Source: Schmidtea nova
Taxonomy: Eukaryota
Direction: 5' to 3'
DNA length: 64,000 bases
Assembly: GCA_044892505.1 (NCBI GenBank)
Contig: CM097882.1
Span: forward strand, 584,722,001-584,786,000
Part shown: one piece after another, positions 984-37,470 of the stretch
How the letters are laid out: every line of letters begins with the position of its first letter
Position numbering within the stretch: the first letter of the stretch is position 1
Translations under genes and position numbers: made by a program
The notes under the pieces: generated by a model
What the model saw: the letters and a program-made list of their open reading frames with translations, nothing else
Told to the model about the DNA's origin: nothing
The model's database searches: none

Positions 984-2069
984 TTATTTAATCAATTGTT
1001 TTTCAGATATCCAACTTGGAGTTTCATATCCATGCCATTTAACGTAATATTGTTTATATTTCCCATCAGTTTTGGTTTTTAAAATCTTTTGAATTCTAAA
1101 AACTGTGGGAGCTGGAATAACTTGAAGTTCTTGTTCGTAGAATTTACCCTCGATTACATTGTTTTCATGATCGGAAATAGTATACATGACAGGATTTTGA
1201 TTAGTATCAACATTTGAGATTTGATATACTTCATCACTCCAATTACTATCAAAATTTTTGATGAAGGGAGAAGCACTAATTTTACTCATTCTCACATAAT
1301 CACCTACTTTATATTTCGGTTTTTTATTAATTGATTTTAATCTATCTTTTATCCATCCATCAAAATTATTATTTGAATATACATCGACAGGTTTCATTTT
1401 ATTTAATCCCGAATGCGGTGATCGATTGTAACTGGAAATAATTTTCGGTAAAACATTTATCCACGTTTTGTTACCTTGATACACAAAATACTTTTTCAAG
1501 CGATCTCTTAAAGTACGATTAAATCTTTCAACATGAGCAGCTTTGAATTGAGAAAATACAGAATAATGATTGATTCCTTTGATCACTTCTTTTACTTTGC
1601 TGTTATAAAACTCTTTTCCTAAATTAAAATTAAATAATTTTTAAAAATTTAATTTCTTACCCAAATCAGTTTGTAAATTACGTGGCTTCCCATCTTTAAA
1701 TAAAGATTCAATAGCCTCAGCCATTTCATTAGCAGATTTAGTTTTTGTTGAAATAGCTCGTGCATAACGGCTAAAAACATCAATACAAGTCAAAATATAT
1801 TTGTAACCCTTGTTAATTTTAGAATATGGAATCATTTCCATCAAATCCATTTGCCATAAATCGTTACCCCCAAAAGTTTTATATTTGCGTGTAGGAAATC
1901 TTTTCAACATTGGTTTATTTAAACTATATGCCAATTGATCAGATAACCATTTCTGAGTTTCATTCTTTGAACTTTTTATTCTTTTTGCCAATTTTTTGAC
2001 TGAACCAAAACCATCGGGATCTTTTGGGTTTGTCCATATCGTTTTTATATTCTTCATGATTTTCTTCAT
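984..2069 (-). CDS. Polinton retroviral-type (rve, DDE) integrase with C-terminal chromodomain; 2 exons (2069-1661, 1618-984), 347 aa
   Basis: Motifs LWQMDL, YILTCIDVFSRYA, spliced LQTDLGKEFYN, HVERFNRTL, and chromodomain YYVKWHGY..PSWI. Exons of 409+635 nt give 1044 nt in frame. Confidence 0.92.
1619..1660 (-). other. 42-nt spliceosomal intron (phase 1) in the Polinton integrase
   Basis: Minus strand reads TTG G|gtaagaaatt...taatttag|GA AAA GAG TTT TAT. Removal restores TDLGKEFYN and removes an in-frame TAA. Confidence 0.88.
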
Positions 2070-2131
2070 TAATACAACAATTTGTTAGAATATTTAAATC
2101 TATATTATGTTTATTCGGTTCAGAAATTTTA

Positions 2132-2461
2132 TTACCCATTTCTTAAAGATGAGATTGCGCTTATTGCTGATAATACTATTGGAATTAATGTACCGAGAAA
2201 CCCACCCTTTTGTTTATATATTATTTTTCGCATAAGATTTCTATTTTTGGTATTCACTAATGATAAAAGCGAATTTTTATGTTTTTGTAGTTCAATTTTC
2301 TTTGATCTACTAATATTTACATTACCATGAACAATATTAAAAACGACTTCAAGTAAATCATCAATAACAAAGGGTGGGAAAGCTTGTAAAATTGTCATTC
2401 GCTTATTTGTTGGAGCTTTAACCAAAGCATTAAAATACGGTAAACTACGTTCAAATTTCAT
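2132..2461 (-). CDS. Small conserved Polinton virion-type protein (109 aa) ending in QKGGF plus an amphipathic/hydrophobic helix
   Basis: C-terminus KQKGGFLGTLIPIVLSAISAISS resembles the GG-motif small proteins of Polintons; lies between ATPase and integrase. Confidence 0.65.
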   Translation of the reverse strand: MKFERSLPYFNALVKAPTNKRMTILQAFPPFVIDDLLEVVFNIVHGNVNISRSKKIELQKHKNSLLSLVNTKNRNLMRKIIYKQKGGFLGTLIPIVLSAISAISSLRNG

Positions 2462-2491
2462 GATTAAAATTTTTGTGTATATTTATTTCGT

Positions 2492-2677
2492 TTATAATTT
2501 TATCCACTTCTTTACTTGTTTCTTTCTTTTACCAATCTTTTTGGTAACTTTTTTAACTAATTTTGATTTTCGATCAACTTTTTTAAGAAGTTTTTGATCA
2601 GCTTTTTTAAGTAGTTTTTGATCAGCTTTTTGAATAGCTTCTTTATTTAACTTGACAATTACTTTTTTAAATGACAT
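2492..2677 (-). CDS. Very Lys-rich 61-aa protein, candidate DNA-condensing core protein
   Basis: About one third Lys, with an internal tandem KADQKLLK repeat; co-oriented and tightly packed in the Polinton cluster. Confidence 0.5.
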   Translation of the reverse strand: MSFKKVIVKLNKEAIQKADQKLLKKADQKLLKKVDRKSKLVKKVTKKIGKRKKQVKKWIKL

Positions 2678-2698
2678 TATTATTTCTTTTATTTATTT

Positions 2699-3322
2699 TC
2701 AATTTTGTTTATAAACCGTGACTCCATTTTCGTTAAATATATCCGTTCGGATACGTAAATCATCAGGACATTGTTGAGTAAAATCAAAGAATAAATATCC
2801 ATGAGGAACTTTAGTAGCATCTTGAAATGAATTAATTAAGAATTTCCTATCATTAGGGTAAGCTTGTCTTGCTAGAAAATCAATAATTGTAGCATCTCTT
2901 GGGTTTTTGAATATAACCAAGTATTGAACATTTAAATTACGAGTTCTGTGACTACCACCTTGATGAAATAAATTTTGAGTAATGAAAATTACAGTAACTC
3001 CTAAATGTCTACTAATTTTTGTGAATAAATTATTAAAATCTTTTTCTTTATTTGCTTCTTGGTACAAATCATCGATAATTATAACATCGCCTTGTCGTAA
3101 TCTAGATGACCAGTTTTTATCAAACCCTTTTATAATTGTCATTTTTAATTTGCAGAATTGATCTTGAGTCAGTCCATGTTCTTCATCAGCTCCCCGATGC
3201 CAGTAAATTTTATTGAATTTAGATTTAAACATTTTTGATTGCAACAATTTACATACAAATAATGTTTTTCCACTACCACTTGGGCCCACTATTTGATAAA
3301 CTGCATCATTTCTTAATTCCAT
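2699..3322 (-). CDS. Polinton DNA packaging ATPase (A32/FtsK-HerA family)
   Basis: Walker A GPSGSGKT, Walker B IIIDD, FTKISRH, ITQNLF, and C-terminal PHGYLFFDF...RIRTDIF. Confidence 0.93.
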   Translation of the reverse strand: MELRNDAVYQIVGPSGSGKTLFVCKLLQSKMFKSKFNKIYWHRGADEEHGLTQDQFCKLKMTIIKGFDKNWSSRLRQGDVIIIDDLYQEANKEKDFNNLFTKISRHLGVTVIFITQNLFHQGGSHRTRNLNVQYLVIFKNPRDATIIDFLARQAYPNDRKFLINSFQDATKVPHGYLFFDFTQQCPDDLRIRTDIFNENGVTVYKQN

Positions 3323-3382
3323 TTTTATTTAATTAATTAATTAATTAATTTAATATTGTTTATATTTATTCAATTTATAAAA

Positions 3383-3865
3383 ATGATAAGTAATATTAAT
3401 TATATGGGCAAGTGTTTAGTTCCAAACATGTTATTTCCTGTTGGGAAACCCCAGCAAGTTATAGATAGGAGTGGAAAGTACCCTATTTTATTTTTCAGAT
3501 CGGGAAAATTTCGTGTAATGGGTTGTAAACAACCGTTAAAACCAGATGATTTGAAATATAAAATTTCAGATTTAAAAATTCAATCGATCACTATAACATT
3601 GGATATGGGTAAATCCATAAATTTATACGAATTACAAAATAAAACAGAGTTCTGGTACGAACCCGAAATATTTCCAGCTTTAAGATTAATAAATTATAAC
3701 CCTATTTGTATTAATATTTTTTCAAGTGGAAAAGTTGTAATATTAGGAATTAAAACATTGGATTATTTTAATCAAGTAAATGAAATTAAAAATTATATTA
3801 ATTCATTAATTAATAATGAATTAATTGATGAAAAATATCTCGATTTATTATTTAATTTTGTTTAA
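3383..3865 (+). CDS. TATA-binding protein (TBP) homologue, minimal core of ~160 aa, Polinton-encoded
   Basis: Two TBP repeats. [14 protein letters not shown] matches [36 protein letters not shown] matches [32 protein letters not shown]...[14 protein letters not shown] matches SYEPELFPGL...LIFVSGKVVLTGAK. First ATG at 3383. Confidence 0.87.
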   Translation: [160 protein letters not shown]

Positions 3866-3900
3866 ATACATTGTTATTTTACAAATCCATATTTTTGAAA

Positions 3901-4286
3901 ATGTCTAAAAGTAAGTATTATTTTTAATTATCTATATTATTAATATTTTTAATTTAGCTTATTTATTTGAAGTGGTCCTGAAGAAAATTCAAGAATTATA
4001 TCCAAAAATAAAAGATTCATTGGATTACTGTGCGCCAGAGTTATTGGTTCATAAGATATATAAGCTTACTGGGATCAATATCGAACAATTGCTCGAGATT
4101 CACTATGATATGGTTCTTGGAGCTGGAGTCAAGTGCATTGAAAATTGCATAGTTTGCAATGATTCACTAAGAGTATCCTGCGTAAACGGATGTGCATGCT
4201 GCCATGATTTTAAAAGAGATCATTCGGTGCATATCTTAATGTCAGAAATGCGTAAAGCATATTATAACGACATTTATAATTTATAA
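3901..4286 (+). CDS. Unknown Cys-rich protein (112 aa), 2 exons (3901-3910, 3958-4286)
   Basis: ATG TCT AAA A|gtaagt...aatttag|CT TAT TTA (47-nt intron, 3911-3957) joins in frame to ORF 3972-4286. Cys cluster CIENCIVC..SCVNGCACCH. Confidence 0.62.
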
Positions 4287-4376
4287 TAAAGTTTTGTGAT
4301 TTAGTTGTTCTTTATTTTTATTGTATTATTTACACTGTGATGAAATATTAGTGTTATTATTTTAGAAATTTTTCTA

Positions 4377-4703
4377 NNNNNNNNNNNNNNNNNNNNNNNN
4401 NNNNNNNNNNNNNNNNNNNNNNNNNNNNNNNNNNNNNNNNNNNNNNNNNNNNNNNNNNNNNNNNNNNNNNNNNNNNNNNNNNNNNNNNNNNNNNNNNNNN
4501 NNNNNNNNNNNNNNNNNNNNNNNNNNNNNNNNNNNNNNNNNNNNNNNNNNNNNNNNNNNNNNNNNNNNNNNNNNNNNNNNNNNNNNNNNNNNNNNNNNNN
4601 NNNNNNNNNNNNNNNNNNNNNNNNNNNNNNNNNNNNNNNNNNNNNNNNNNNNNNNNNNNNNNNNNNNNNNNNNNNNNNNNNNNNNNNNNNNNNNNNNNNN
4701 NNN
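4377..4703. other. Assembly gap (N run)
   Basis: Run of N. Confidence 0.99.
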
Positions 4704-4759
4704 TTATTATTAATATTATTATTTTAAAAATTTTTCTAAGTTTTTTCCCACTGAACCGA

Positions 4760-5143
4760 AAATATAAAAATAAATATAAATTAAAATAAATATAAATTAC
4801 TAAATATAAATTATTAAATATAAATTATTAAATATAAATTATTAAATATAAATTAATATAAATTAATAAAAATTATTAAAAATAAATTATTAAATTATAA
4901 ATAAAAATAATTAAAAATAATTAAAAATAATTAAAAATAATTAAAAATAATTAAAAATAAATTAAAAATAAATAAAAATAAATAAAAAATAAAATAAATA
5001 CTTCATTTAAACAAAATAATAAATTAAATTGACTTCATTTAAACAAAAAATTAAAATTAAAAAATTCACTTCATTTAAACAAAATTAAAAATTAAAAATT
5101 CACTTAATTTAAACAAAATAAAAATTTTTTAAAAATTCACTTC
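4760..5143. repeat. AT-rich tandem repeats
   Basis: TAAATATAAATTAT-type and AAATAATTAA-type arrays, then ~35-bp units containing CTTCATTTAAACAAAA (4-5 copies). Confidence 0.8.
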
Positions 5144-5179
5144 AGGTCTGTTCCTGTTCTTGGGCGCTCCCCCTACTCT

Positions 5180-5843
5180 ACTTATGTTGATTTCAACAAC
5201 TTCGATGAATTAATCAAAAAGGCCATGAAGATTGAACTTAATTTGAAAAGTACACAATCAAATTCAGAATCATTTGCAATGATGGGACAAAAACAAGAAA
5301 GATTAGTAACTCCTGAGAAGAACAACAGATTTCAACAATATAGCAGTCCTTCGCCAAAATTCAAAGCCAAATTCCAATCAAGTCAACCAACTAATGCCCC
5401 AATTGACGAGAAAGAAATGCCAATACAATGCAGCAATTGTCAAAGAATGGGACATCATGTGAATCAATGTTGGCTCAAAAACAGATCTCAAAGAAGCCCA
5501 ACTCCAATCCAATGTAATAATTGCCAAAAGATGGGTCATAATAGTAGTCATATTTGGTTCAAAGGTAATATGCAGAGCCCAAGGCGAATGTGGCCAGAGT
5601 GGATGAAAGGTAATGGTGATAAAAGTTTTAATAAATTTAGCAATGTGGAACAACGAACTAATGATAATGTGCATTGCTACCAATTGCGGAAAGAAAGGAC
5701 ATGTGTTGAGAAATTGTTATGCTAAATCAAGATCACCGTCAACATCACCATCACCACAAAGAGACAAAGTTAATTTGCAAGGTCAAATTCAATGCCACTC
5801 ATGTAGACTCTATAATAGATACGGCAGCCAGGATGCTAAATGA
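5180..5843 (+). pseudogene. gag C-terminal part with 3-4 CCHC zinc knuckles
   Basis: FDELIKKAMKIE; CSNCQRMGHHVNQC; CNNCQKMGH; frameshifted (C)..CGKKGHVLRNC; degenerate CHSC. Confidence 0.82.
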
Positions 5844-5934
5844 ATATTTAATAAATTGAATAAAAGAAAAGGGTGATTGGAAGATATTGTGTCCACCACT
5901 AGATATAAAAGAAAATGAGGAATAGACAAGAAAA

Positions 5935-7934
5935 TTGTGTGATAAAGTCAGTTCGAAAACAAAGAGAATCGGAATATTCCCATGGTTGATGTTTACAATG
6001 ATTATCTTGTGTACAGTTATTACACATATGACGTCATTGGTTGCATATGATTGCTCTCAAACCGAAATGGGAAGGATTTACTCAGTAGTAGATATGTCAG
6101 AATGCCCAGATGCCTATCTTAGTAAATTACAAATTGAAAATGATGTAAAATACCATGTGTATCAAGAGTCAGATTTACAACGAACTAAAGTTAGAGAGTG
6201 TATTGTCAAACATACAAAGTTTGTGTTTTATTGTGGAAAATGGAGCCACATGTCATTGATAAAAGCGAGAGCAATACCTAGACCCGTTGAAATTTTTCCA
6301 GAAAATTGTTTAACAGCATTTCAAACCGGAGAATTAAAAATAAGTTCGGAAATTCGATTAAAAGCCAAACTGAATCATAGAACGAGAGAGACAGTAGTTG
6401 TGAAAGGAATCATGAAAGCAAATGGTGATTGTGAAGGTGAACCGTATAAAATGGATGGTAAAATTGTAGATAAACGGTAGTACTAGAGAAATACCTTATA
6501 GAATTGAGAGAGTTCGAAGGAGCATCTGATGATGATACAGGTAAATTGCTAACACATCCATTTTGCAACATGAAACAAACAAATTGTCAAACGGGAGAAT
6601 CAATTTTAGTTTATGATGTTAAAGTAAATAAATGTAATTTGGCTCATTTAAAGACAATGAATTTTAAAGAAATAATAGGAGAACAATTCAAAGAAAGACC
6701 GGAAAGTTTTGCCGTGAATTATAAACTAAAAGAGACAATTAAATCGACTCCCTTAATGACCAGGCGAACAAGTGAAGTATTGATGTCAACATCGCCAACG
6801 GACGGCAAGCGTTTCATAAAAAAGGAACCTACTAATAAATATGGAAGAGTTGTGTATGCAACAAATTATAAAGGTGTCTATATTTCAAAGGGAATAGTTG
6901 AAGACGCAAAACTAAAATTTATACAGGCGACATTAAATTAACGCACTATTTTAATAATAAAATTGATTATTTATTCCATTTTAGTCAGAACGTCATGGAG
7001 AACGTATATAGAGAAATGATCCTAAATGATTGTAAATTAAATAAAGAGATTCTTCGGAATCGGATGGCTATGGCAGTCACAAACCCAAATTTGATAGCAC
7101 CTAATGTTGATATCGGAAAGTGGCGTGTTCGCGAGAAGTTTTAGAGAAGCCTTATACAGCTACAAATGTAAAGAAGTTGCTGTAAAAATTGCGAAATATG
7201 AACAATGTAAGAATGAATTACCCGTAAGTGTTGAGGGTAAGTTACGATTTATGGAACCAATCACTCAAATATTGGTCGAAGTACAGGCTAAACCAAAAAT
7301 ATTACAATGTAATCGATTACTTGCTCCGTTATATCGCTTAACGCCGGATTCATGGATAGCGTTACCAGACTACAGAGGAGTTAAAACTCATGATAAATTT
7401 GAGGTAACAGATTTTGAATATTTGGTGAACTTTACGTCATTGAATAAAATGGCACAAATGGGGTTGTATGCAAGCGAAGACATCGAAGAGGCTCAAAGAA
7501 ACTTGCTATTTCCATCAAAAAAGGTAAGGGTAATTTCAGACAGAGAAGGAAAAGTTAATTACGAATATTTGTTAACACCCGATCATTTCAAAAGAGCCAC
7601 ATATAAAACAATGGAAAAGATTTGGGGGTATATTTATGTTCTTAGGGCTTGTGTTGGTTTAATTGGAATCTACGTAATTGCAGTAACGATGATAGTGATA
7701 GTATCGCAAGTGTTGTCAGCACATAGAATATACGTTATTTCCGGATGGTCATGGAAAATAATTATCGGTTGTATTCCATTTTTGGCCAGATTTTTCATAA
7801 CAAATCATCAATACAAAGAAATGGCAAATGTAAGAGCACAATTGAGAAAGGATAAAAAAGTGAGGAATCATTTTGTCAATCACAAGATATTGATAGTCAT
7901 AACAATAACAATGACGGAGGTAAGACCGAGTTGA
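5935..7934 (+). pseudogene. Chuvirus-type (class III-like) envelope glycoprotein, about 3 frameshifts
   Basis: Hydrophobic signal followed by LVAYDC..YSVVDMSEC..VYQ..VREC..FYCGKWSHMS. Bridging frame at ~6935-7125 reads YFNNKIDYLF..VYREMILNDCKLNKEILRNRMAMAVTNP. Then YKCKEV.V..CKNELPV..RFMEPITQIL and a C-terminal TM region with GWSW. Confidence 0.8.
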
Positions 7935-8108
7935 AATATTTTCGAAGGAGGATATTGAAAAATAAAACAGAACCAGAAACTAGATTTTTGCTCGAACCAA
8001 TGCCAAAATTAAGCGGAATTGATACGTTAACCCGATGGCATACTCCAACATTTGAACCAACAACACCTGTATATCCAAGCGAAAAATTAAAAGAGATGAA
8101 ACCATTAG

Positions 8109-10809
8109 ATGAGATTCGAATTGCATCAGAGAAAATTGAACCCAACGAGTGCGGAAATCGAACGCAAAAATATGCTTGGATTACCATGCAGTTATGCGTT
8201 AATGACAATGATGGTGGGAGGAAAACAACCTTGGATCGATGTTTTGTTTAATGATCGAAGAGTGCAAGCTTTATTAGATTCAGGTTCAAGTCATTCTATA
8301 GTGTCGGAGGAATTTTTAACGTATCGCGAAAGAAAAGAGATGAGGCCGACAAATAAGCGTATCAAATCAATGTCGCTGAATATTATAGGAAAAGTTAACG
8401 CAAAATTGAAGATTGGAGATCAGGAGATTATTCACTGGGTAACAGTAATTAGAAGAAGCCCTGTAAAATGCCTTATTGGTATGGACGTTATGAAGCCGTT
8501 AAAAGGAATTTCACTTGATCTAAATACCGGAAAATTGATAAAAGGTCAAACTGGTGAGGTTATTGAGGAGGTAGGAGAAGTTTTCCTAAATCAATTAGTT
8601 GATATATCGTCAAAAAGCGAAATAATATATTATGCAGATGCAACGAATGCACCAGGCGAAGAATGCATATTTGAGCCAAATCCAAAATTAATAGAAAAAT
8701 ATGATTTACCTATGTGTGATGAGATAGTGAGAGTCAAAAATAAATTAGTGCCAGTGCAAATAGCGAATTGTGGCACAAAATCCATTCAGATGCAACCCAA
8801 AACAAAATTGGGGAAATTGACAAAGATTGAAGCTGAAGAAGCTCAGAAACTACCGAGAAATATCAAAATTTATAAAAACCTCAAGTTACAAGCAATGATT
8901 TAACAGATGATCTAAAGAAAGAATTTACAGCACTATTAATGAAATACAAAAGTGTGTTTGCTAAACATGAATACGATTTGGGACTTACTCAAATAATTGA
9001 GCATGAGATACCTTTGCTGGATGAAACTTCTATCAAATTGAGACCATATAGAATTCCTTACGTTTATCAAGAAGAAAGTGATCGACAAATTAAAGCAATG
9101 AAATAATTCAATATTATACAAGACAGTTCGTCACCATTTTCATTATCGATAGTGATTATTAAAAAGAAAGATGGAGAGTTGCGATTTTGTGTAGATTATC
9201 GAAAGTTGAATCAGGCCACGAGAAAAGATACGTATCCTATTCCAGTTCCACAGAAAATGTTTGATCAAATGGGCGAGATACAATTTTTCACAGTAATTGA
9301 TTTAAATAAAGGATACAACCAATTTAAAGTAAAAGAGGATGACGAGAGAAAAACAGCATTTTCAGACGGTAAAGGTCTATATGAGTTTAACGTTTTAACA
9401 TTTGGATTAACTGGAGCACCGGCGACTTTCTAGAGAGGCATGAATTTCGTATTGCGAGACATTCCACAAGCATTAATCTATATTGACGACATAATAATAT
9501 TCTTAAGTGATTTTCAAGAACATTTAAAAGATGTGGAAACAGTATTCAAACGATTATTAAATGCAAATTTAAAAATAAAACCATCAAAATGTGAGTGGGG
9601 AAAGTCTGAAGTTGTCTATGTGGATCATATTATTTCACGGCATAGATTACAGCCAAATCCGGAAAATGTGGAGAAAATCAAAAGTTATCCCATTCCTACG
9701 GATGTGGATCAAGTTCGCCAATTTCTTGGATTAGCAATTTATTACAGAAAATTTATTAAAAATTTTTCACGTGTAGCACAACCTTTAAAAGTACTGTTAA
9801 AAAAGCAAACCAAATTTAAATGGACTACGGCTCAGCAAGAAGCATTTGACAAGCTCAAGGAAAGTTTATTAAAACAACCGATATTGAGATGTCCAGATTT
9901 TAAAAGACCGTTCATCTTAATGACAGATGTTAGTAATTTTGAATTAGGTGCAGTATTGGGTCAACAAGTTGAAGGCGAAAAAGGTCATGTAATCGCTTAT
10001 GCTAGTCGCACATTGAAACCACATGAAAAGAATTACTCCACAATTGAAAAAGAAACTTTAGCACTAGTATATGGAATTACTACTTTTCGACAATATTTAA
10101 TCGGGAGAAAGTTTATCGTCTTTACCGATCATAATCCATTACAATGGCTCATGAAGCACAGAAATTCATCAAGCAAGTTGATTAGATGGTCAATTGCGTC
10201 GCAAGAATATGATTTCGAAATTAAGTATCGCTCAGGAAAGTCGAATGCGAATGCCGATGCGCTGTCGAGAATTAATAGCGGAGATGATGTTAGTAAAAAC
10301 GAGACAAATTATGAAAATACAATATTTATGGCTATTAAAACTATAAATAATATAAAAGAACTACAAAATGATCAAGAGAATGATATTGAATTAAATCGAC
10401 TACGTCAACATGCAGTCACAATCAAAAAAGAGAGTGACTGGAAACAAGTTGTTGAAGAAAAACATAAATATATTATCCATGATGGTTTGCTAAAATGTGT
10501 GAAAAATGAAAATTTATTAATTATCGTTCCAACAAAACATCGAAAATTATTACTATTGTTGTATCATGATGGAGCATTGGGAGGACATTTATCAGCACGA
10601 AAAACGTTATCAAAGCTAAAGCAAAAATATTATTGGGATACCATGGAACAGGATGTCAGACAGTGGTGTCACACGTGTGAAATATGCTTGACTAGGAGAA
10701 ATACAGGAAAGAAGATTAAAGTTCCACTAAAGCCAATGCCAGTGCCAGAAGTGCCAATGGAAATGACAGCAATGGATATCGATGGTCCATTACCAGAAAC
10801 AACAAATGG

Positions 10810-10853
<44 letters not shown>

Positions 10854-11849
10854 CTTTTGTAACTATTTAACAAAATGGCCAGAAGCTTAACCTATGCCAA
10901 ATCAGAAAGCAAAAACAGTAGCAAAAATATTTGTTGAAAACATAATCTTTCGATATGGAGCGCCAAAGAAATTACTTACAGATCAAGGAACGAACTTTCA
11001 AAGCGATTTATTCAAGTCAGTCACAGAATTATTCGGGATAATGAAAATTAATACATCACGATATCATCCACAAACAGACGGTCTAGTTGAAAGATTCAAT
11101 GGAACATTAATTAATATGATATCATCCTACGTGAACAGAAAACAGAAAGATTGGGATTCGTTTATAAAGACATGCCTATTTGCGTATCAAAACGCCGTGA
11201 ACGAAAGCACCGGTGAAACACCTTTCTACCTCATGTATTTACGACGTAATAATATGCCAATTGATTTGAAATTTCAGTCACCTATTTCTCAATACATGGA
11301 CATATCCGATTATAAAGTAATCATGCAAGAGAGATTACAGTCAGTATGAGTTCAAGCAGGTCTTTAAAAAAACATCAGCAAGAAGCCTACAAAGAATCCT
11401 ACGATAAACGCGCACATGCGCATGATATTAAAATTGGAGATCTGGTATATATAAATAAATCAGAACCAACAAAAGGATTATCAGTAAAACTGCAAAGACC
11501 TTATAAAGGGCCATATTTAGTATGCGAATCTACAGAGATTAATCTGAAGTTACGTCCACAGAATAATAAAAAGGCTGAAACAATTATTGTTCATGTTAAT
11601 AGATGTAAAAAGGTACCGGTAGAAAACATAAAACGGTACCCACTACGATCAAAGCAAAATAAAGATGATGACATAGTCATACAAAAATTTGCAAAACACC
11701 CAGCCCCATCAAGTTACATCAATAGTTTTGTTAATTTCAACAGTAATGGTGTTGAATATTTTGTGTATGAATGCAATAGGGTATTCTCCATCATTTGCGA
11801 CAAAACGAATTCCATTGTTAGAGACAATCAATACATTTGCAACATGTAG
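8109..11849 (+). pseudogene. Gypsy pol: protease, RT, RNase H, integrase (HHCC, DDE, GPY)
   Basis: LLDSGSS; LRFCVDYRKLN, YIDD; TDVS..LGAVLGQ..YSTIEKE; H..H..C..C; MDIDGPLP, TDQGTNF, VERFNGTL, GPY. TAG at 9431-9433 and further disruptions. Confidence 0.92.
10812..10846. repeat. (AT)n microsatellite expanded inside the integrase coding sequence
   Basis: About 17 AT units after GPLPETTNGN, shifting the frame. Confidence 0.95.
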
Positions 11850-12841
11850 CCAGATTGTATGGGTTTATTCTTGTGAAAAAGAGGAGGAAGTATAAATAAA
11901 TTATTTATTAAATTATTTCGAATTACAATAATAATAATTATGTTGCACGTCATCTGACAATGAACTACAAATATCCGTGGCTGTTAACACAGCTAGATTC
12001 TAAAAAAACACTACGGAAATACGTAATATTGTTAGAAGATGGGAGAATCCTAAAAATATTAAAATTAAAATATTACACAGTAGGGACAGATAGATATTGA
12101 ACAAATATACATATACAGAAATAAGCTACAGAAAAATTGGTTTGATGACAATATTCAAGATAACTATGAGGATAACAATTTGGTGATTTATTTTGACAAT
12201 TATGACTATATTGATTATGCTACTATTTTATTTTATTTTGATCATGACAATTATAACTGTATTGATTGTTTGGTCACTTTTATTTTTATGGTGATTGATG
12301 TAATAAAGAGAAAGATTATTTAATAGATGTTATATTTTTCAGTCCGAATTTTTAAAGAAATCCTTGTTTTGCATTAAAATAGAAAATGGAAATTATAAAT
12401 AACATTTGATGTCCAATTTCAATTGTGCAGTTGCAAGTACAAAAAAAGTGATTTAATTTATTTATTAAATTAATTAAGTAATTAATTTTTATAGAAAGAT
12501 TATACAAAGAAATTATAGTTATTAAACCAATTTCTTTTGCGTAACCCCTTTATAAAAATTTGTGTAACAATTTGATCAAGTACTTCCTGTTAATAAATAA
12601 AATTTAATATTTGCTGTATTATAATTGTTTTGTATAAAATAATAAATTTCAATAAAAACAATACTAACGGCTAAAATAAGTTCCAAATGTAGAACGTGGA
12701 TAAAAAGCACAACATAAACCAAAATATTCGTGATCCCAAAATATTAAAGGAGTAGTGTAATAGGCTAACGGTTTTAGTAGAATGCGAGGGACACGTCGCG
12801 CAAGTTCCGGCTCCTCGCCTTTGGGGTTTCTAAATAATAAT

Positions 12842-12960
12842 TGTTGTGATTAAAATATTAATCACACATCAATTTAACAAAATATTAATTTTGTTTAAAT
12901 AATTAAATATTGTGATAAATAAATATTTTGAATTTTATCTTATTATGTCAAATCATAACA
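12842..12960 (+). repeat. 5' LTR (119 bp)
   Basis: TGTTGTG...CATAACA; identical by eye to 16443-16561. Confidence 0.96.
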
Positions 12961-13697
12961 TTGGCGACCACGCGGCAATTCAACAACAATCAGAAGACGC
13001 TATTTTGCGAGTTTCAATCAAACCATGTCCATTCTACAGAAATAATCCAGATCTATGGTTCAGACAGCTAGAATCCTAATTTAAATTGTCCAAATTATCA
13101 AATGATTCTACTAAATTTCACCATGTTATGGCTTATCTTCCTGAAGATGTCGTTGTCAATATTCCAGAGACAGTTAATGAATTTAACCAAAGTATCAAAG
13201 AAATTATTATGAAGAATTTTGCCAAGCCACTGACAAAATGTATTGAATACGCACTTGGAAAATTTAATCTAGATGATTTAAAACCCACACATCTTCTTCA
13301 GAAAATTAGTACGGCGTTCACAGAAGCTCAAATAACAGACCAACGATTATTGCGACACAAGTTTATTGAAGCTCTCCCAAAAGATATTAGGCTCATAATC
13401 ACAAGTTATCAAGACAAGTCTACGGAAGAATTGACTGCAATAGCGGATGGGATGTTGGCTGTAATGGAAAATGAAACACAATATTCGAATGAACATTTTA
13501 AAATCCAGGCTTTAATGGATGAAATTGCAGAATTAAAAGAAGAAATATTCAATTTAAAAGAAAGTCCCAAGAAATTGAATAACCTTTGTTTCTATCATAC
13601 TAAATATGGAAGAAATGCCAGGAAATGTGACAAATTGAAAGATGGATCCCGATGTGCTTTATATGTGCCGGGAAATGTAAAAACGCTTCGAAATTAA
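12945..13697 (+). pseudogene. gag, one internal TAA at 13077-13079
   Basis: PFYRNNPDLWFRQLES*F, and C-terminal CFYHTKYGRNARKC. The only in-frame upstream ATG is at 12945, inside the LTR. Confidence 0.85.
12962..12972 (+). promoter_or_regulatory. Primer binding site TGGCGACCACG (probably tRNA-Arg)
   Basis: One base after the LTR. Complement of CGTGGTCG-CCA, which fits tRNA-Arg(TCG)-type acceptor stems. The isotype is an inference. Confidence 0.75.
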
Positions 13698-16430
13698 CCA
13701 CCGTCGAAGCGTGTATTCAAAAGCGGTGTACAGTAAATCAAATTTTTATTTTCAATAATAAAGACAAATTTTTAGTGGACACAGTTTCGTGTTTACCTCG
13801 AAAATTTTTCAAGCCAGAAACTCCATACTCATCTCGACTTACAGCTGCCAATAGTACTCCAATAAAATGTTATGGGAATAGGAAAATTGAGTTACGAATT
13901 GATGACAAAACAATTAGTTGGTCTTTCCATGTATGCGATGTATCGCAGTCTATTCTTGGTGCAGATTTTCTAGCAGCACATCACGCTCTAATTGACTACA
14001 AGTTGAAAAGAGTTTCAATTAATTCGATAGTTGATAATAACTTGTTGAATTACTTCAACAAACCAGAATGTAGCGCCAAGATCACAACACAACATGACAT
14101 TGTTTTAAATGATATCGTCAGATCATTCCCAGCAAGGCGATTATATGGCGACAAATTAAAAGCTGCCAAAGATTGGTTTAACAAAATGGTAGACACTGGC
14201 AAATGTCGATTATCAAACTCGCCAATTTCTTCGCCACTAGTTGTTGTAAATCAAAATGGAAAATACAGATTTTGCGGTGATTACAGAAATCTGAACACTG
14301 CAACCATACCTGACAGATATCCAATTCCAAGAATCGAGGATATATTGCAGATTGTGAGAAATAAAAAATACTTCTCCACTATCGACCTTGAGAAGGCGTA
14401 TTTACAAATTCCAATGAACGAGAGTGACATTCCAAAGGCAGCAATAACTACGCCGTTTGGTATGTATCAATTCCTTTTCATGCCTTTTGGATTACGAAAT
14501 GCCCCATCGACCTTTCAACGAACAATTGACACAATATTGCGAAAATTTTCATTCGCAAGAGCATACTTGGATGATGTAATTATTGCATCAGACACAGAAG
14601 AAGAACATGGCAAGCATTTACAAATAATTGCAAATGAATTGAATAAAGTTGGATTTTTAATCAATGTAGAAAAGTGCAAAATTATGCAATCTGAAGTAGA
14701 TTTTTTGGGCCACCACATATCGAGAACTGGAATTTGTCCTTTAGAAATCAAAATCAAAACAATTCAAAATTATAAATTGCCAGAGACAACTAAACAAATA
14801 AGAAGATTTTTAGGTATAATTAATTTTTATAATCGTTTCATTTCAGGGGCTGCAAATAAATTAGAATTGCTATATAAACTTATCAATTCAAAATCAAAAA
14901 AGATAATTTGGACGGATGAAGGCCTAAAATGTTTTGATGAAGCGAAACAAATATTACAAAAAACGACCGAACTCGCGTTATTTCATGAATTGGAACCTAC
15001 CACTTTGAGAACAGATGCCTCAGGATCAGGAATTGGAGCAGTACTGGAGCAAAACGGGTGACCAATATCATTTTTTAGCAGACTGTTAATGAACACAGAA
15101 TCCATATACAGTACATACGACAGAGAATTACTTGCAATATACAAAGCTTGCAAGCACTTCCATAATTTCCTCGAAGCCACTGAATTCGTAATACAGACGG
15201 ATCACAAACCGATTACCCAAGGACAACCAAAAGATCCAAGCAACAGACAATGGAGACATCTCCAATATATTCATGAATTTCAGTGCAAGATAGTATACTG
15301 CCCTGGAAATAAAAACCAAGTTGCTGATGCACTCTCTAGAACAGACGTTCAATTAGTTTCAGATAACGTTTACCCGTGGCTGAATGAAGAGATACTACAA
15401 AAGCAGAAAGAAGAGATGAATCATAATAAAGATGAATTATTAATGAAAAATGGGAAATTAATATTACCTCCGAGTCTCAGAAGAGAAGCTTTTCAGATGA
15501 TTCACAATATCGCTCATCCAGGAATACGAAGGACCAAGATATTGATGTTGAGTTCATATACATGGCACAAAATGACAAAGGATGTCCAGATGTGGTGTCA
15601 GCAATGCGATTCCTGCTCAAAATCAAAGGTATATCGTCATATCAAAGCGCCATTGCAAACATTCCCAGCAGCTAGTCGGTTTCATACTCTTCATATTGAT
15701 ATTGTTGGACCTCTTCCAGCAAATAACGGTAAGTCCTACCTACTGACAATGATTGATAGGCAAACATCATGGCCTGAGGTGATAGCCATTAAAAATATAG
15801 ATTCAGAAACCGTGGCAAAATCTCTAATTGAAGTATGGATTTCCCGATATGGAATTCCATCCGAAATCGTAACAGATTGTGGTAGGCAATTTACAAGCTC
15901 TTTATTCCAGTATATGTGCAATGTTCTTGGAATAAATACAAATCAAACATGCGCTTATCATCCTCAAGCCAATGGAAAAGTAGAAAGATTCCATCGAACA
16001 CTAAAATCTCAAGTTATGGCTTCAATGGATAAAACTAATAAAAGGTGGATTGACGTATTACCTCAGGTACTGTTAACGATAAGGAACAGTCCAGATTCAA
16101 CAGGTTACTCTCCGGCGCAGAAAGCATTTGGATGTGATCTTGCTGTACCAGGAATTATGTTTAATTCCCCAAAATAAGCTTCTTCATTTCAATTAAAAGA
16201 AATTATTGAGAGCTTCAAAATAATCGAAAGACCACTGCAAGATGGTATGACAATCCCGAAATCTATTAAGGACTTTGAATTTGTGTAATTGAGAAAAGAT
16301 GTACGGAAGTCTTTAGAATCTCCATATACAGGTCCGTTTCGTGTATTAGAAAAGCAGCCAAAATATTTCAAGCTATCGTATCGGGAGAATGTATCAGTTG
16401 ATCGTCTAAAACCAGCATGGCAATCAATTT
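13652..16430 (+). pseudogene. pol (PR-RT-RH-IN) in the -1 frame relative to gag, with several stops
   Basis: FLVDT; YRFCGDYRNLN, YLDD; TDASGSGIGAVLEQ; HIDIVGPLP, TDCGRQF, VERFHRTLK; YTGPF. Slippery G GGA AAT at 13670-13676. Stops at 15059, 16175 and ~16288. Confidence 0.92.
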
Positions 16431-16441
16431 AGGAGGGAGAA
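16431..16441 (+). promoter_or_regulatory. Polypurine tract
   Basis: AGGAGGGAGAA immediately before the 3' LTR. Confidence 0.88.
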
Positions 16442-16442
16442 T

Positions 16443-16561
16443 TGTTGTGATTAAAATATTAATCACACATCAATTTAACAAAATATTAATTTTGTTTAAA
16501 TAATTAAATATTGTGATAAATAAATATTTTGAATTTTATCTTATTATGTCAAATCATAACA
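16443..16561 (+). repeat. 3' LTR (119 bp)
   Basis: Identical copy of 12842-12960. Confidence 0.96.
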
Positions 16562-17563
16562 ATAATAATAAACCACAATAATAAATAAAATAACCTGAAA
16601 AATAAAAATGTGATATCAGAATGCACATTTGTGCAAACACAAAAAAAAGCAAACATTGAGCAATACTCAAAAATAAACAAGGCACAGATTGTGCAATATA
16701 AATAATTTTAAATGCACTTAAGTGCAATCTACTAATCAATAATAATAAGAATTTAAGAATTTTAAGAATTTAATAATTTTAATGGTCTAAAATATAAATA
16801 AAAAATATAATTATTTTTAATAATGATTTTAAGATAATTTAAAATATAAAATATAATTATGTTTTAATAATAATTCATAAATATTTGATAAGATACATGT
16901 TCTTCTTCCATAGAAACATTACACAATTATAACTTTTTAATGATTAAAACAAAAAAGAATAATAACAACTTAAAAAAATAAAACAAATAAAATAATTTAT
17001 TCTAATAATGCGAGAAACCACCTTTTTAACATCAAGGATGCTGGGATATCTAATAAATCTAAAAATAGTAACCCCCAATTTTGTACTTTAAAATTAACGG
17101 AAATTTCGCTGAATAAACATATTGGATAGACAAAGCGTATTGACATTCAAAATGAGGTGTCAACAAGAATTTACTATACACACAGACTGATCTTTCAGTC
17201 AAAGCACCCCAAAAAATTATTTTGCGAAGAAGAATTGCAAATTCAGTAGTTGATATTGCAATATAAATTCGAGCATACAAATTTACATAACTGAGCTCAG
17301 GTAATAGCATTTAGAGACTATTAACAAAGAAAACAAGATAAAAAGAGAATTTTATATAAAGCAACATTATTAATTGTGTGAAAGGTGAATATTTTATTTT
17401 GTAATATATAATTATTGTTATCAAATAAAAGTTTAGAAAAGAACCAGTCTTTGACTTATTTATTTATATAAGTTCATCAAGTTGAGATTCTTGGAACCTC
17501 AACAATATTATACACCTTGAAATTTGGACAAAAAGGTGGGAAAACTTTGTATCAATCGAACCT

Positions 17564-18382
17564 ATGATAAATGGAATCAATGTATATTCGGAACCCCAGG
17601 AATCCCAACAAGTAAAAACGATTTTCCAAAATTACGTGATAGACACACTGAATAGTAGAAAACCCTTTATAAATTATGTTAATCTAAAATTATTTCAGAC
17701 TTATAATATTGCACTTCACTATTATGAGAAGGCTTTATATGAAAACGGCACCGAGAAGGAAAATCAATGGATCAAAGTTCACACCAGCCAACAAACCATT
17801 ACATTAATTAATGAAACAAATAGAGTTCAGTTTCACATATATCATCAAACAATAAAAGTCACCAGACAAACAGACCCCAATCAAAAGGCCAATCAAAAGG
17901 CGGTTATATATTGTTATGGGAAAATTCAAGCAACTTTAGACAATAAAATACAATCTCAAACAATAATCTTTCAACAATCGCAATCAAAACCAATGTCGAG
18001 ATTAGTGCTCGTATAAATCAAATATTACCGTCGTACTCTAAATTCAAATCTATGGCAGATTACTTTAGTCGAAAATAAACTCATTCAAGTCTCATATGAT
18101 GAACTATACCCAAATGATTCACACCAATATCAAACCACGACAGTTCTTAATGACATTACTTTTGTTAATAACTCAAGTGCAAATAATCAAACTACATCGT
18201 TTCTAAAAATTAATAACGAGACTATGTGCATAACACTGATCATAATTATCATTTCCTTAACAATAGTTCTAACCGTTATCATTGCTATCGTAGTGTACAT
18301 ATTCGAAAAATCATTCCAATCTCCGACAAATCAATCCGAGGATTCGAGACCTAGGATTGTCTACGAGGAGACATTTGTATAG
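17564..18382 (+). pseudogene. Unknown single-pass membrane glycoprotein-like ORF (273 codons, one internal TAA at 18014-18016)
   Basis: The frame stays open after the stop to TAG at 18380. Several N-x-S/T sequons (NGT, NET, NSS, NQT) and TM segment CITLIIIIISLTIVLTVIIAIVVYIF. Confidence 0.55.
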
Positions 18383-18793: not shown

Positions 18794-20205
18794 ATGGAAC
18801 AAATACCATGGACAGGACAATTTATGACAGTTACCACAAACTCCACAGAAGCCATACCGACCAAAGATAAAGAATCGATCAAAATCTGGAAATACCAAAT
18901 TATCTCCGAATCGACGGTAGAAGAATGAAAATTCAAATTCTGAAGCTACATCGCAAGTTAAGAATAAAATTGTCTGAAGAAGTACAAATGGCCAAAAGGA
19001 AGATTATTTCTTGCACATAATCAAAGGAACAGTCGAGATTATGAATGAGCGAAACCAGTCCTGGCTATAAATGAAAAAATTTACTACGTGGAAACTTCAG
19101 GAGGAGATAATGAACAAACCGTTGAGAGCCGTCAATAAAGATGTAATAATGGTCATAGAAATCAAAATCGACAATGAAATAGGACTGATTCCAAGTAGAT
19201 ATCCAACAGATGGGAACGATGAACCATTAATGGAAATTTCGGAGGAGATCCTGAAAAGGAAAATGTCATTTATCAGGAAGCAAATATGTTTGGAAGAAAT
19301 CCGCAACCGAATATTATTTATCGACGCGGAATATGGACACTCCAAAGCAGGAAAGATGATTCCCTTGTCTGTGGTCATCATGAACTATCATGGCAAAATA
19401 ATCCGAAACAATTTCATCACTCCAAGAGGAAAACTGAGGTATTAATTCAAAGATTCATGGGATAACAGAAGTTGCCAGTAGAAATCAATCGGATCAATAT
19501 TCTGAGATGAAAGAAATACAGGAATTGACCAAAGAAAAAATATTGATTGGGCACGATCTTCATGCTGAACTGGAATATCTGCAAATATGGATCAATAGAT
19601 TATATGGAGTGCGGGATTTAGCAGCAGCGCAAGTGTTGAAATTAATGAATGTTAGCCGAAAAGGAGAGTGGTTTAAATTGAAAACCGTAACTCAAAAATT
19701 ATGCGGAGAAGAAACGCAAACAGGTATCCACACTGCGTTGGATGATGTGAAGAGTATTAGAAAGATATACTTGAAAGTGGAAAGTGAATGGATTGATGAT
19801 GTGACGATTCCTAGGAAGCAGCCCTCAAAAAAATATTCGCTAGAGGAATACAAGAATCTACGAGGGCAAAGTACATCAGAAATAGTACAGATTTCAGAAA
19901 TTGTGGATCTAACCACAGAAGAATCCAGGATGGAAATCGAATTCCCGGCCAGACAATTGAATTGGGCAACAGAAAATAACTTAAAAACTAAGGAAGAGAG
20001 TTTAGAAGTTATTGAAAGTTTAATGGAGGGAATATCAGAATATAAACTGGAATATGGGCCAATGCCTAAAGATAAAAATAGAAAGAGGAAACTGAGTGTA
20101 GAGATCGAGGAAAATGTAACGTATGCAGGAAAGGTGTATGTTCGAGAAGAAACAATTGTTCGAAACCGGCATGGAGAAAAGAGCTTCAAGATTAAATTCA
20201 ATTAA
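18794..20205 (+). pseudogene. REX4/ISG20-like DEDDh 3'-5' exonuclease gene with N- and C-terminal extensions; frameshifted
   Basis: ILFIDAEYG (ExoI), VVIMNYHG, bridging frame SKIHGIT, LIGHDL (ExoII), VRDLA, QTGIHTALDD (ExoIII). Confidence 0.8.

Positions 20206-36641: not shown

Positions 36642-36710
<69 letters not shown>
36642..36710. repeat. (TA)n microsatellite
   Basis: About 34 TA units. Confidence 0.97.
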
Positions 36711-36713
<3 letters not shown>

Positions 36714-36797
36714 GCTACGGGTAAACCAGTACTCTTTGGGCACTTCGTCTTATCCCTAGCCTCAAAAATTAAATTCACTTAACTTTTAGTAAAAAAA

Positions 36798-37470
36798 ATG
36801 GAGCAAATCCCATGGACAAAGACAACATACGACAGCTACGCAAAACTTCAAAGGAATGATGCAGGACAAGATTTTCAAATAAACAACAATTTATAAATTC
36901 CAAACTATTTAAGAATAGACCATTGGAAAATGAAAATCCAGATGTTCAAATTATATCGAAATATAGAAATGAAATTAGCTGATGAAATTCAAGTATCCAG
37001 AAAAGAGGAATACTATCTACATATTATCAAACGAACAGTGAAAGTGATGGATTGAAAACATCAATCGTGGTTTGAATTTAAGAAACTAACTTCCTGAAAA
37101 ATTCAAAAAGAAATTATGTCAAAACTAATATGTGCAGCAAAACGAAAAATCCATTATTGGCTGGGAAACGAGAAAAGACAATGGAGCAAACGAAAGACCA
37201 TGTATATAATCAACGGAGAGCAAGGATTCAAAATTGATACAAATCTCAGAGGACATGTTAAAACGAAGAATGTCATTTATTAGGAAGGAAATGGATCTCG
37301 AAAAGATTCCCAGCTGAATATTATTCACAGGCGCAGAGTATGGCAATTCGGAATCAGGAAAATTGATTCCCTTGACAGAAACCATTATGAATTATAAGGG
37401 TAAAATAGTCAAGGAGAAAAATTCGCAATTTTAATTCAAGGATTCATGGAATTACGGTAGTGACCAGTAA
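36798..37470 (+). pseudogene. Second, more decayed and 3'-truncated copy of the DEDDh exonuclease gene
   Basis: ATGGAGCAAATCCCATGGACA versus ATGGAACAAATACCATGGACA at 18794. Translates ILFTGAEYG..GKLIPL..IMNYKGKI and ..IHGIT. Shares upstream promoter motifs. Confidence 0.78.

Follow-up and report, generated by a model that had tools for sequence, protein, structure and literature searches.

In a stretch of 64,000 nucleotides of Schmidtea nova DNA (contig CM097882.1, positions 584,722,001 to 584,786,000; here called the window), a glycoprotein gene of viral type lies between the gag and pol parts of a Ty3/Gypsy retrotransposon. Is the glycoprotein a native part of such an element or a chance insertion, where did it come from, and what might it do? 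We analysed the window itself, related copies in the same genome and homologous sequences from elsewhere.

The window copy and its damage

On the plus strand between ~5180 and ~11720, the open reading frames and Pfam matches of the window place gag knuckles, glycoprotein, protease, RT, RNase H, integrase and GPY in sequence (Table 1). A first, sequence-only reading had assigned the pol to Ty3/Gypsy rather than BEL/Pao from motifs such as FCVDYRKLN and YIDD, and the profiles agree: RVP/Asp_protease, RVT_1, RT_RNaseH, Integrase_H2C2, rve and GPY occur in order. A BEL/Pao backbone was rejected, as the matches include no Pao-type Pfam family and gypsy-type domains are found instead. The glycoprotein motifs AYDC, YCGKWSH, CKNELPV and PITQIL are present, and two Env pieces match PF24664 (Monjiviricetes_fusion) strongly, with E-values of 1.7e-24 and 6.4e-28. 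The gene had been described as one open frame of ~660 codons; it is indeed a glycoprotein, but in the window it is split into four frame pieces (5926–6477, 6474–6938, ~6941–7100 and 7098–~7855).

The window copy is a dead, rearranged, frameshifted and truncated member of a Burro-like Ty3/Gypsy LTR family (Metaviridae) that has multiplied recently. It lacks both LTRs and the beginning of gag, and no LTR of the same family flanks it. Compared with a natural copy, ~1,830 nt (about 600 codons) are absent at 5807/5813, and the 36-mer spanning this junction occurs only once in the whole genome with up to one mismatch allowed. The distance of ~90 nt between knuckles and glycoprotein, pointed out in the sequence-only reading, is thus real in the window but not native, since it results from a ~1.8-kb deletion private to this copy. 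The claim that the glycoprotein abuts the protease frame at 7931 had to be dropped: a frameshift creates its apparent end at 7931/7934, and the homologous sequence goes on in another frame through a linker of ~130 codons to the protease, which starts near 8200. Direct contact of the glycoprotein with gag or protease was therefore discarded as an artefact of deletion and frameshift in the window copy.

A Polinton/Maverick-like gene cluster (window 984–4286) adjoins the element. The ends of the ~1.75-kb solo-LTR-like insert (TGTTAG...CTCAACA) resemble those of a 2,992-codon family described below, and a fragment at 36696–37412, ~65% identical to the exonuclease ORF2 of the element, is probably left over from a related family.

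Table 1. Features of the element and its surroundings, in window coordinates.
Feature	Position	Strand	Evidence or remarks
Polinton/Maverick-like integrase with chromo-like tail	984-2084	-	
Adenovirus pX-like ORF, Polinton/Maverick-like cluster	2132-2482	-	
A32-type ATPase, Polinton/Maverick-like cluster	2699-3328	-	
TBP-like ORF, Polinton/Maverick-like cluster	3341-3865	+	Pfam TBP E 7.7e-16
3' gag (nucleocapsid, CCHC knuckles, the fourth cut)	5183..5807	+	zf-CCHC E 1.7e-4; 77-95% aa identity to residues 207-417 of natural copy
Junction of ~1.83-kb deletion; ubiquitin-like and most of Bcl-2-like region gone	5807..5813	+	blastn against natural copy jumps from 4293 to 6123
Remnant Bcl-2-like C-terminus (BH2-like motif), stops inside	5813..5967	+	alignment to natural-copy residues 1020 onward
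Hydrophobic stretch, predicted internal signal peptide of Env, ending just before YDC	5968..6045	+	hydropathy maximum in natural copies (residue ~1078); analogy with viral G
Env ectodomain and TM region (Monjiviricetes/gB-type)	6046..7855	+	PF24664; frameshifts near 6472, 6908, 7103, 7854; small indels near 7541-7647
Env cytoplasmic tail and linker to protease, frameshift near 8141	7856..8207	+	alignment to natural copies
Aspartic protease (LLDSGS) and spacer	8208..8900	+	Asp_protease E 6e-7, RVP E 8.5e-5
RT, RNase H, integrase zinc finger, with in-frame stops	8876..10813	+	RVT_1; RT_RNaseH E 2.5e-37; Integrase_H2C2 E 2.3e-19
Integrase core and GPY domain, broken	10852..11723	+	rve
Degraded second signal sequence and start of post-integrase FN3 protein	11692..12029	+	tblastn, natural-copy residues 2990-3120
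Later solo-LTR-like insert (~1.75 kb), TG...CA ends, ATAT duplication	12030..17504	+	holds another gypsy element
Env-less gypsy element nested in the insert	12842-16561		identical ~120-nt LTRs, 5-bp ATAAT duplication
Remainder of post-integrase protein: predicted FN3 domains, TM anchor, short tail ending ETFV	17505..18382	+	81% identity to natural-copy residues 3105-3393
ORF2, DEDD-family exonuclease, broken	18794..20205	+	RNase_T E 2e-4, just under cut-off

Intact copies, related families and accessory modules

Natural copies were collected by searching the 1.25-Gb assembly with the first Env piece of the window; 150 of 2,727 candidates were scored, at 78–100% identity. A hand count of these gave 32 with stop-free frames of 3,381–3,401 codons around the Env match. 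Ten copies were fetched, and all domains lie in one frame in the nine that had been selected for long frames. The intact polyprotein consists of Gag, ubiquitin-like and Bcl-2-like regions, signal, Env, PR, RT, RNase H, integrase-GPY, second signal, three predicted FN3 domains and TM. Four CCHC knuckles (residues ~289–411) are followed by a middle region of ~660 residues, a hydrophobic segment (~1078), AYDC (~1103), the Env TM (~1641), PR (~1855), RT (~2261) and GPY (~2929); ~390 further residues follow GPY, with the terminal TM at ~3346. Retrotrans_gag is matched at E 8e-7, and intact Env matches PF24664 at E 2.4e-90. The suspected gag-env-pol order is thus genuine, and the natural copies, with their single stop-free frame, encode it as one polyprotein.

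LTR pairs of ~855–880 nt with TG...CA ends (97.6–100% identical), together with a polypurine tract, were found in eight of the ten fetched copies and were not recovered in the other two; 4-bp target-site duplications (TSDs) are clear in seven of the eight, and both of two additional copies have LTR/TSD support. Full elements measure 15.3–17.0 kb, and the primer binding site (PBS) is complementary to the 3' end of host tRNA-Trp(CCA) genes plus CCA. Genes for tRNA-Trp(CCA) form a tandem array with a period of ~282 nt at C3:128.02–128.07 Mb (L115–L118); a genome-wide count of the tRNA-Trp pattern gave 2,036 forward matches, which probably include primer sites as well as genes. Identity is 99.4–99.98% among copies of one subfamily and 75% between subfamilies A and B, from which it follows that several lineages expanded recently. 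Between two subfamily-A copies (L013–L014 and L019–L020) dS is 0.01–0.05 in most domains and 0.2–0.6 in the middle region, the Env TM and RT, a patchiness that suggests recombination between lineages. One poly(A) RNA run yielded 549 reads, 484 of them below 95% identity and mostly on the LTR; the depth over the ORF was 0–2.4.

Three further families are present in the genome, with frames of 3,427, 3,345 and 2,992 codons and RT identities of 96, 85 and 50%, respectively. They share the order Gag-Bcl2-signal-Env-TM-Pol-signal-ectodomain-TM, the most distant (50% RT identity) having a shorter ectodomain with one FN3-like motif. The 2,992-codon family (L061–L064) is young (~1,195-nt LTRs, 99.9% identical) and has the same layout with a different PBS; all 76 of its scored copies stand at 48% identity to P0005. 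Outside proteins retain gag-Env-PR or BH2-Env-PR fusions with 41–42% Env identity, and the distant gag-Env-PR relatives P0002 and P0003 apparently have more than one aspartic-protease domain past Env.

In natural copies the exonuclease ORF2 belongs to the element. An exonuclease-like ORF2 also follows the polyprotein in two of the three further families; for the 3,345-codon family, the copy that was fetched had none listed. Its motifs DAEY, GHDL and HTALDD, read by eye and with no profile behind the subtype, suggest a DEDDh exonuclease, and RNase_T is matched in another subfamily at E 1.4e-4, just below the cut-off. The middle region contains, by alignment, two ubiquitin-like motifs (Pfam ubiquitin E 0.037 and 0.012, sub-threshold) and a Bcl-2-like domain that ends in a BH2-like W...GGW. 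Pfam Bcl-2 E-values were 0.004, 0.001 and 0.17, and 7.6e-6 in a distant family, all short of the curated cut-off; subfamily C gave no Pfam Bcl-2 match. All 55 PDB matches of the Bcl-2-like region (E≤10; best E 0.007) were Bcl-2-family chains, as were all 60 matches listed for a four-sequence profile against the PDB. A single-sequence AlphaFold model of the region (pLDDT 42) was uninformative. Host defence or cell death is the likely target of the ubiquitin-like, Bcl-2-like and exonuclease modules.

The post-integrase part opens with a signal-like stretch and ends in a TM. Five structure models were made, of which one, based on nine sequences, was confident (three beta domains, pLDDT 81) and the other four were not (51–56). 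The best Foldseek matches were tandem FN3 fragments of fibronectin repeats (E 3e-9; whole-chain TM-scores 0.2–0.3), and the ectodomain is predicted to comprise three FN3 domains. Pfam FN3 was not matched in the copies or outside homologs scanned; an atlas look-up, taken as a lead only, gave the FN3 clan (0.84–0.87). The protein has four outside homologs; in one of them (P0019) a single frame runs from the integrase tail through the signal into the beginning of the FN3 part.

Selection on Env and its origin

The best 150 RT matches in the genome were checked for an upstream Env, which was present in 142. It lay at the expected spacing in 100 copies; the remaining 50 were all fetched and comprised 38 with a full Env, 4 with a partial one and 8 with none within 4.2 kb. 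Of these eight, six have no PR either and one has a partial PR; the last (L076) retains PR, and its Env match lies ~20 kb upstream. We read the eight as truncations or insertions. When four natural copies were compared codon by codon in pairs, dN/dS was 0.03–0.09 for the Env ectodomain; between subfamilies it was 0.01–0.03 for RT, 0.06–0.07 for capsid, 0.15–0.40 for the Bcl-2-like region and 0.18–0.22 for the FN3 region; the ratios are rough because dS is near saturation. By these ratios, Env is under strong purifying selection. Fourteen ectodomain cysteines are common to three subfamilies, and viral G proteins likewise open with a predicted signal followed by the same [AG][YF]DC. A phmmer search of the PDB with the C-terminal Env piece of the window gave no matches at E≤10, and the class III/gB label therefore rests on Pfam and on published models of relatives; an atlas look-up put Env at the PF24664 cluster (0.83), again as a lead only. 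We consider it likely that Env still serves the element as a membrane fusogen.

Selection on Env indicates function, not extracellular spread. Env may be retained for a job inside or between cells, either tethering assembly to membranes or merging with adjacent stem or germ cells, with no free infectious particles, and we give this reading a chance only a little short of even. We count in its favour that no RxxR furin site is found in the Env ectodomain; gB-type Env proteins do not always keep this site, according to the consulted part of PMC13524379. The full-length ectodomain and its cysteines are, however, conserved across families, beyond the needs of an anchor. Infection from cell to cell by the element itself appears plausible but rather doubtful.

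To place Env among viral glycoproteins, five matching IMG/VR contigs were considered: two mononegavirus-like (N..G-L order), two that their gene order (L-G-N and G-N) would make chuvirus-like, and one gypsy. The last (L043:50-5681) carries its PF24664 env behind the gypsy pol, the canonical pol-env order. The sequence-only reading proposed an independent capture of a chuvirus glycoprotein by a gypsy lineage, which would be fairly recent. The PF24664 match is in keeping with this, and so are the E-values, with the two chuvirus-order G proteins scoring 3e-41 and 1e-39 versus 3e-32 and 3e-23 for the mononegavirus-like ones (four viral G sampled). Yet the identity of Env to both groups is alike, at 21–28%, and it is nested in neither. 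In a 16-row tree (midpoint root, four viral G), a single clade (100/100) unites the element Envs with the outside gag-Env-PR fusions. Its branch measures 2.4 substitutions per site, and the element Envs fall outside all four viral G proteins of this small sample. Moreover, the layout is common to families at 50% RT identity, and PMC13524379, in the part consulted, argues for an ancient association. A chuvirus capture of this kind is improbable; "chuvirus-type" is an apt family label but unproven as to the donor, which cannot be named because only four viral G proteins were sampled.

In the window alone the broken glycoprotein resembles a separate ORF, but the probability that it is a viral fossil (EVE) nested by chance in one gypsy copy is virtually nil, as Env is in frame in dozens of copies, accompanies 142 of the 150 RT copies and has no boundaries of its own. 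On boundaries, on profile similarity to the Monjiviricetes fusion family and on the presence of Env in other copies, the sequence-only reading was borne out.

Relation to known elements and a working model

Burro/GYPSM1, a group of giant gypsy elements of dugesiid planarians, is described in the consulted text of PMC6431247 (Arkhipova & Yushenova 2019) as having Gag, knuckles, Ubi2/SUMO-like and BCL-2 domains, an in-frame Env between BCL2 and PR, and then PR-RT-RH-IN; its Env matches mononegavirus fusion glycoproteins and is presented there as the first env to lie in frame between gag and pol. The window's family resembles it in its single polyprotein, in which sub-threshold ubiquitin-like and Bcl-2 regions occur in the published order and are followed by an in-frame Env, but it is compact, with 15–17 kb and ~3,400 aa versus >30 kb and 4,873–5,140 aa for Burro (PMC6431247). 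MATH, BIR, ankyrin and dUTPase gave no Pfam matches in the parts scanned. The family is Burro-like and is not Burro-1 to -4. The passages on Burro in PMC6431247 make no mention of a post-integrase FN3-TM protein or an exonuclease.

GAG-ENV-POL Ty3/gypsy elements with HSV/gB-type ENV are reported from Nematoda, Bryozoa and Platyhelminthes in PMC13524379 (Chary & Hayashi, eLife), which in its consulted part finds them not to be monophyletic and also lists 114 gypsy pol genes of arthropods with a chuvirus-like G next to them. Smed_errantivirus_1 (and 2–6) of that study share with the window's family the Ty3/gypsy pol, the gB-type Env between gag and pol, and multiple copies (45 listed). By an eye count, the Smed_errantivirus_1 Env segment agrees with the first Env piece of the window at 81 of 113 residues (~72%); the six Smed elements are 27–64% identical among themselves (PMC13524379). 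In the consulted part of that paper no LTR or tRNA type is listed for Smed_errantivirus_1, whereas LTR, TSD and tRNA-Trp PBS are resolved here, and its main text, as consulted, has no mention of Bcl, ubiquitin, exonuclease or polyprotein. The novelty that had been claimed for the gene order and for the gypsy/gB-type pairing does not stand, both being published in PMC6431247 and PMC13524379 as far as consulted. An arrangement that is already published adds little by itself; what is added is a young, compact, high-copy family whose LTR, TSD and primer site are resolved, evidence of selection on Env nearly as strong as on Gag, and a signal-FN3-TM module fused behind integrase and conserved down to 50% RT identity. 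The FN3 module was not found in such elements in the text passages and supplement rows searched, and it provisionally seems undescribed.

Nematode non-canonical ERVs reportedly have a continuous gag-env-pro-pol ORF (attributed to Sacco et al. 2022), and Anakin-type BEL/Pao elements are said, from Dezordi 2020, to carry a chuvirus-like G. As cited in the consulted part of PMC13524379, the former have env before pol in a metavirus, as in the window's family, in hosts of a different phylum; the latter share the glycoprotein family on a BEL/Pao backbone, unlike the gypsy backbone found here. Rotifer Vesta/Juno LTR elements (Rodriguez 2017, PMC5408684, as consulted in part) resemble the window's family in carrying a DEDD-family exonuclease, as ORF3, downstream of pol; theirs is DEDDy, whereas the motifs read from our sequences suggest DEDDh.

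Overall, the best explanation, very probable as a whole, is that intact copies encode Gag, a Monjiviricetes/gB-type Env that is likely a fusogen, and Pol in one frame of ~3,400 residues, the window copy being dead; the identity of the element is highly probable. Hydropathy and the analogy with RNA-virus polyproteins lead us to favour, with some reserve, a topology in which the polyprotein would be threaded through the ER membrane, its four hydrophobic segments alternating cytosolic and luminal blocks. The Gag-Ubl-Bcl2 block would stay cytosolic. In Bcl-2 proteins the tail anchor sits behind BH2; here, the hydrophobic stretch in that place would be the internal signal of Env, cleaved before YDC. 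The Env ectodomain would enter the lumen and the Env TM would bring the chain back to the cytosol, with PR-RT-RH-IN tethered to the Env tail until release by the protease of the element. The second signal, behind GPY, would send out a type-I membrane protein bearing FN3 domains. The parts would be set free by signal peptidase and by the protease of the element, and the element would assemble on membranes alongside its own fusogen. A second moderately hydrophobic stretch that follows the Env TM could alter this topology. With one single frame, Gag and Pol should be made in equal amounts, a point that the model leaves unexplained.

A bolder version, which we regard as unlikely though worth stating, is that these elements are two-glycoprotein enveloped retroviruses made from one ER-threaded polyprotein: the gB-like Env would fuse, the FN3 protein would be its receptor-binding partner or a decoy receptor, a Bcl-2 tail anchor would have been reused as the Env signal, and spread would take place between cells of the regenerating animal. 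If it is a second virion protein, the FN3 module would offer a handle on the infectivity of invertebrate gB-type elements and on their choice of target cell. Absent from two more distant families, a tail ending in ETFV or ETIL closes the FN3 protein in four subfamilies (L014:3220-3236; window 18365–18382), which we take to be an ending of the class I PDZ-binding type.
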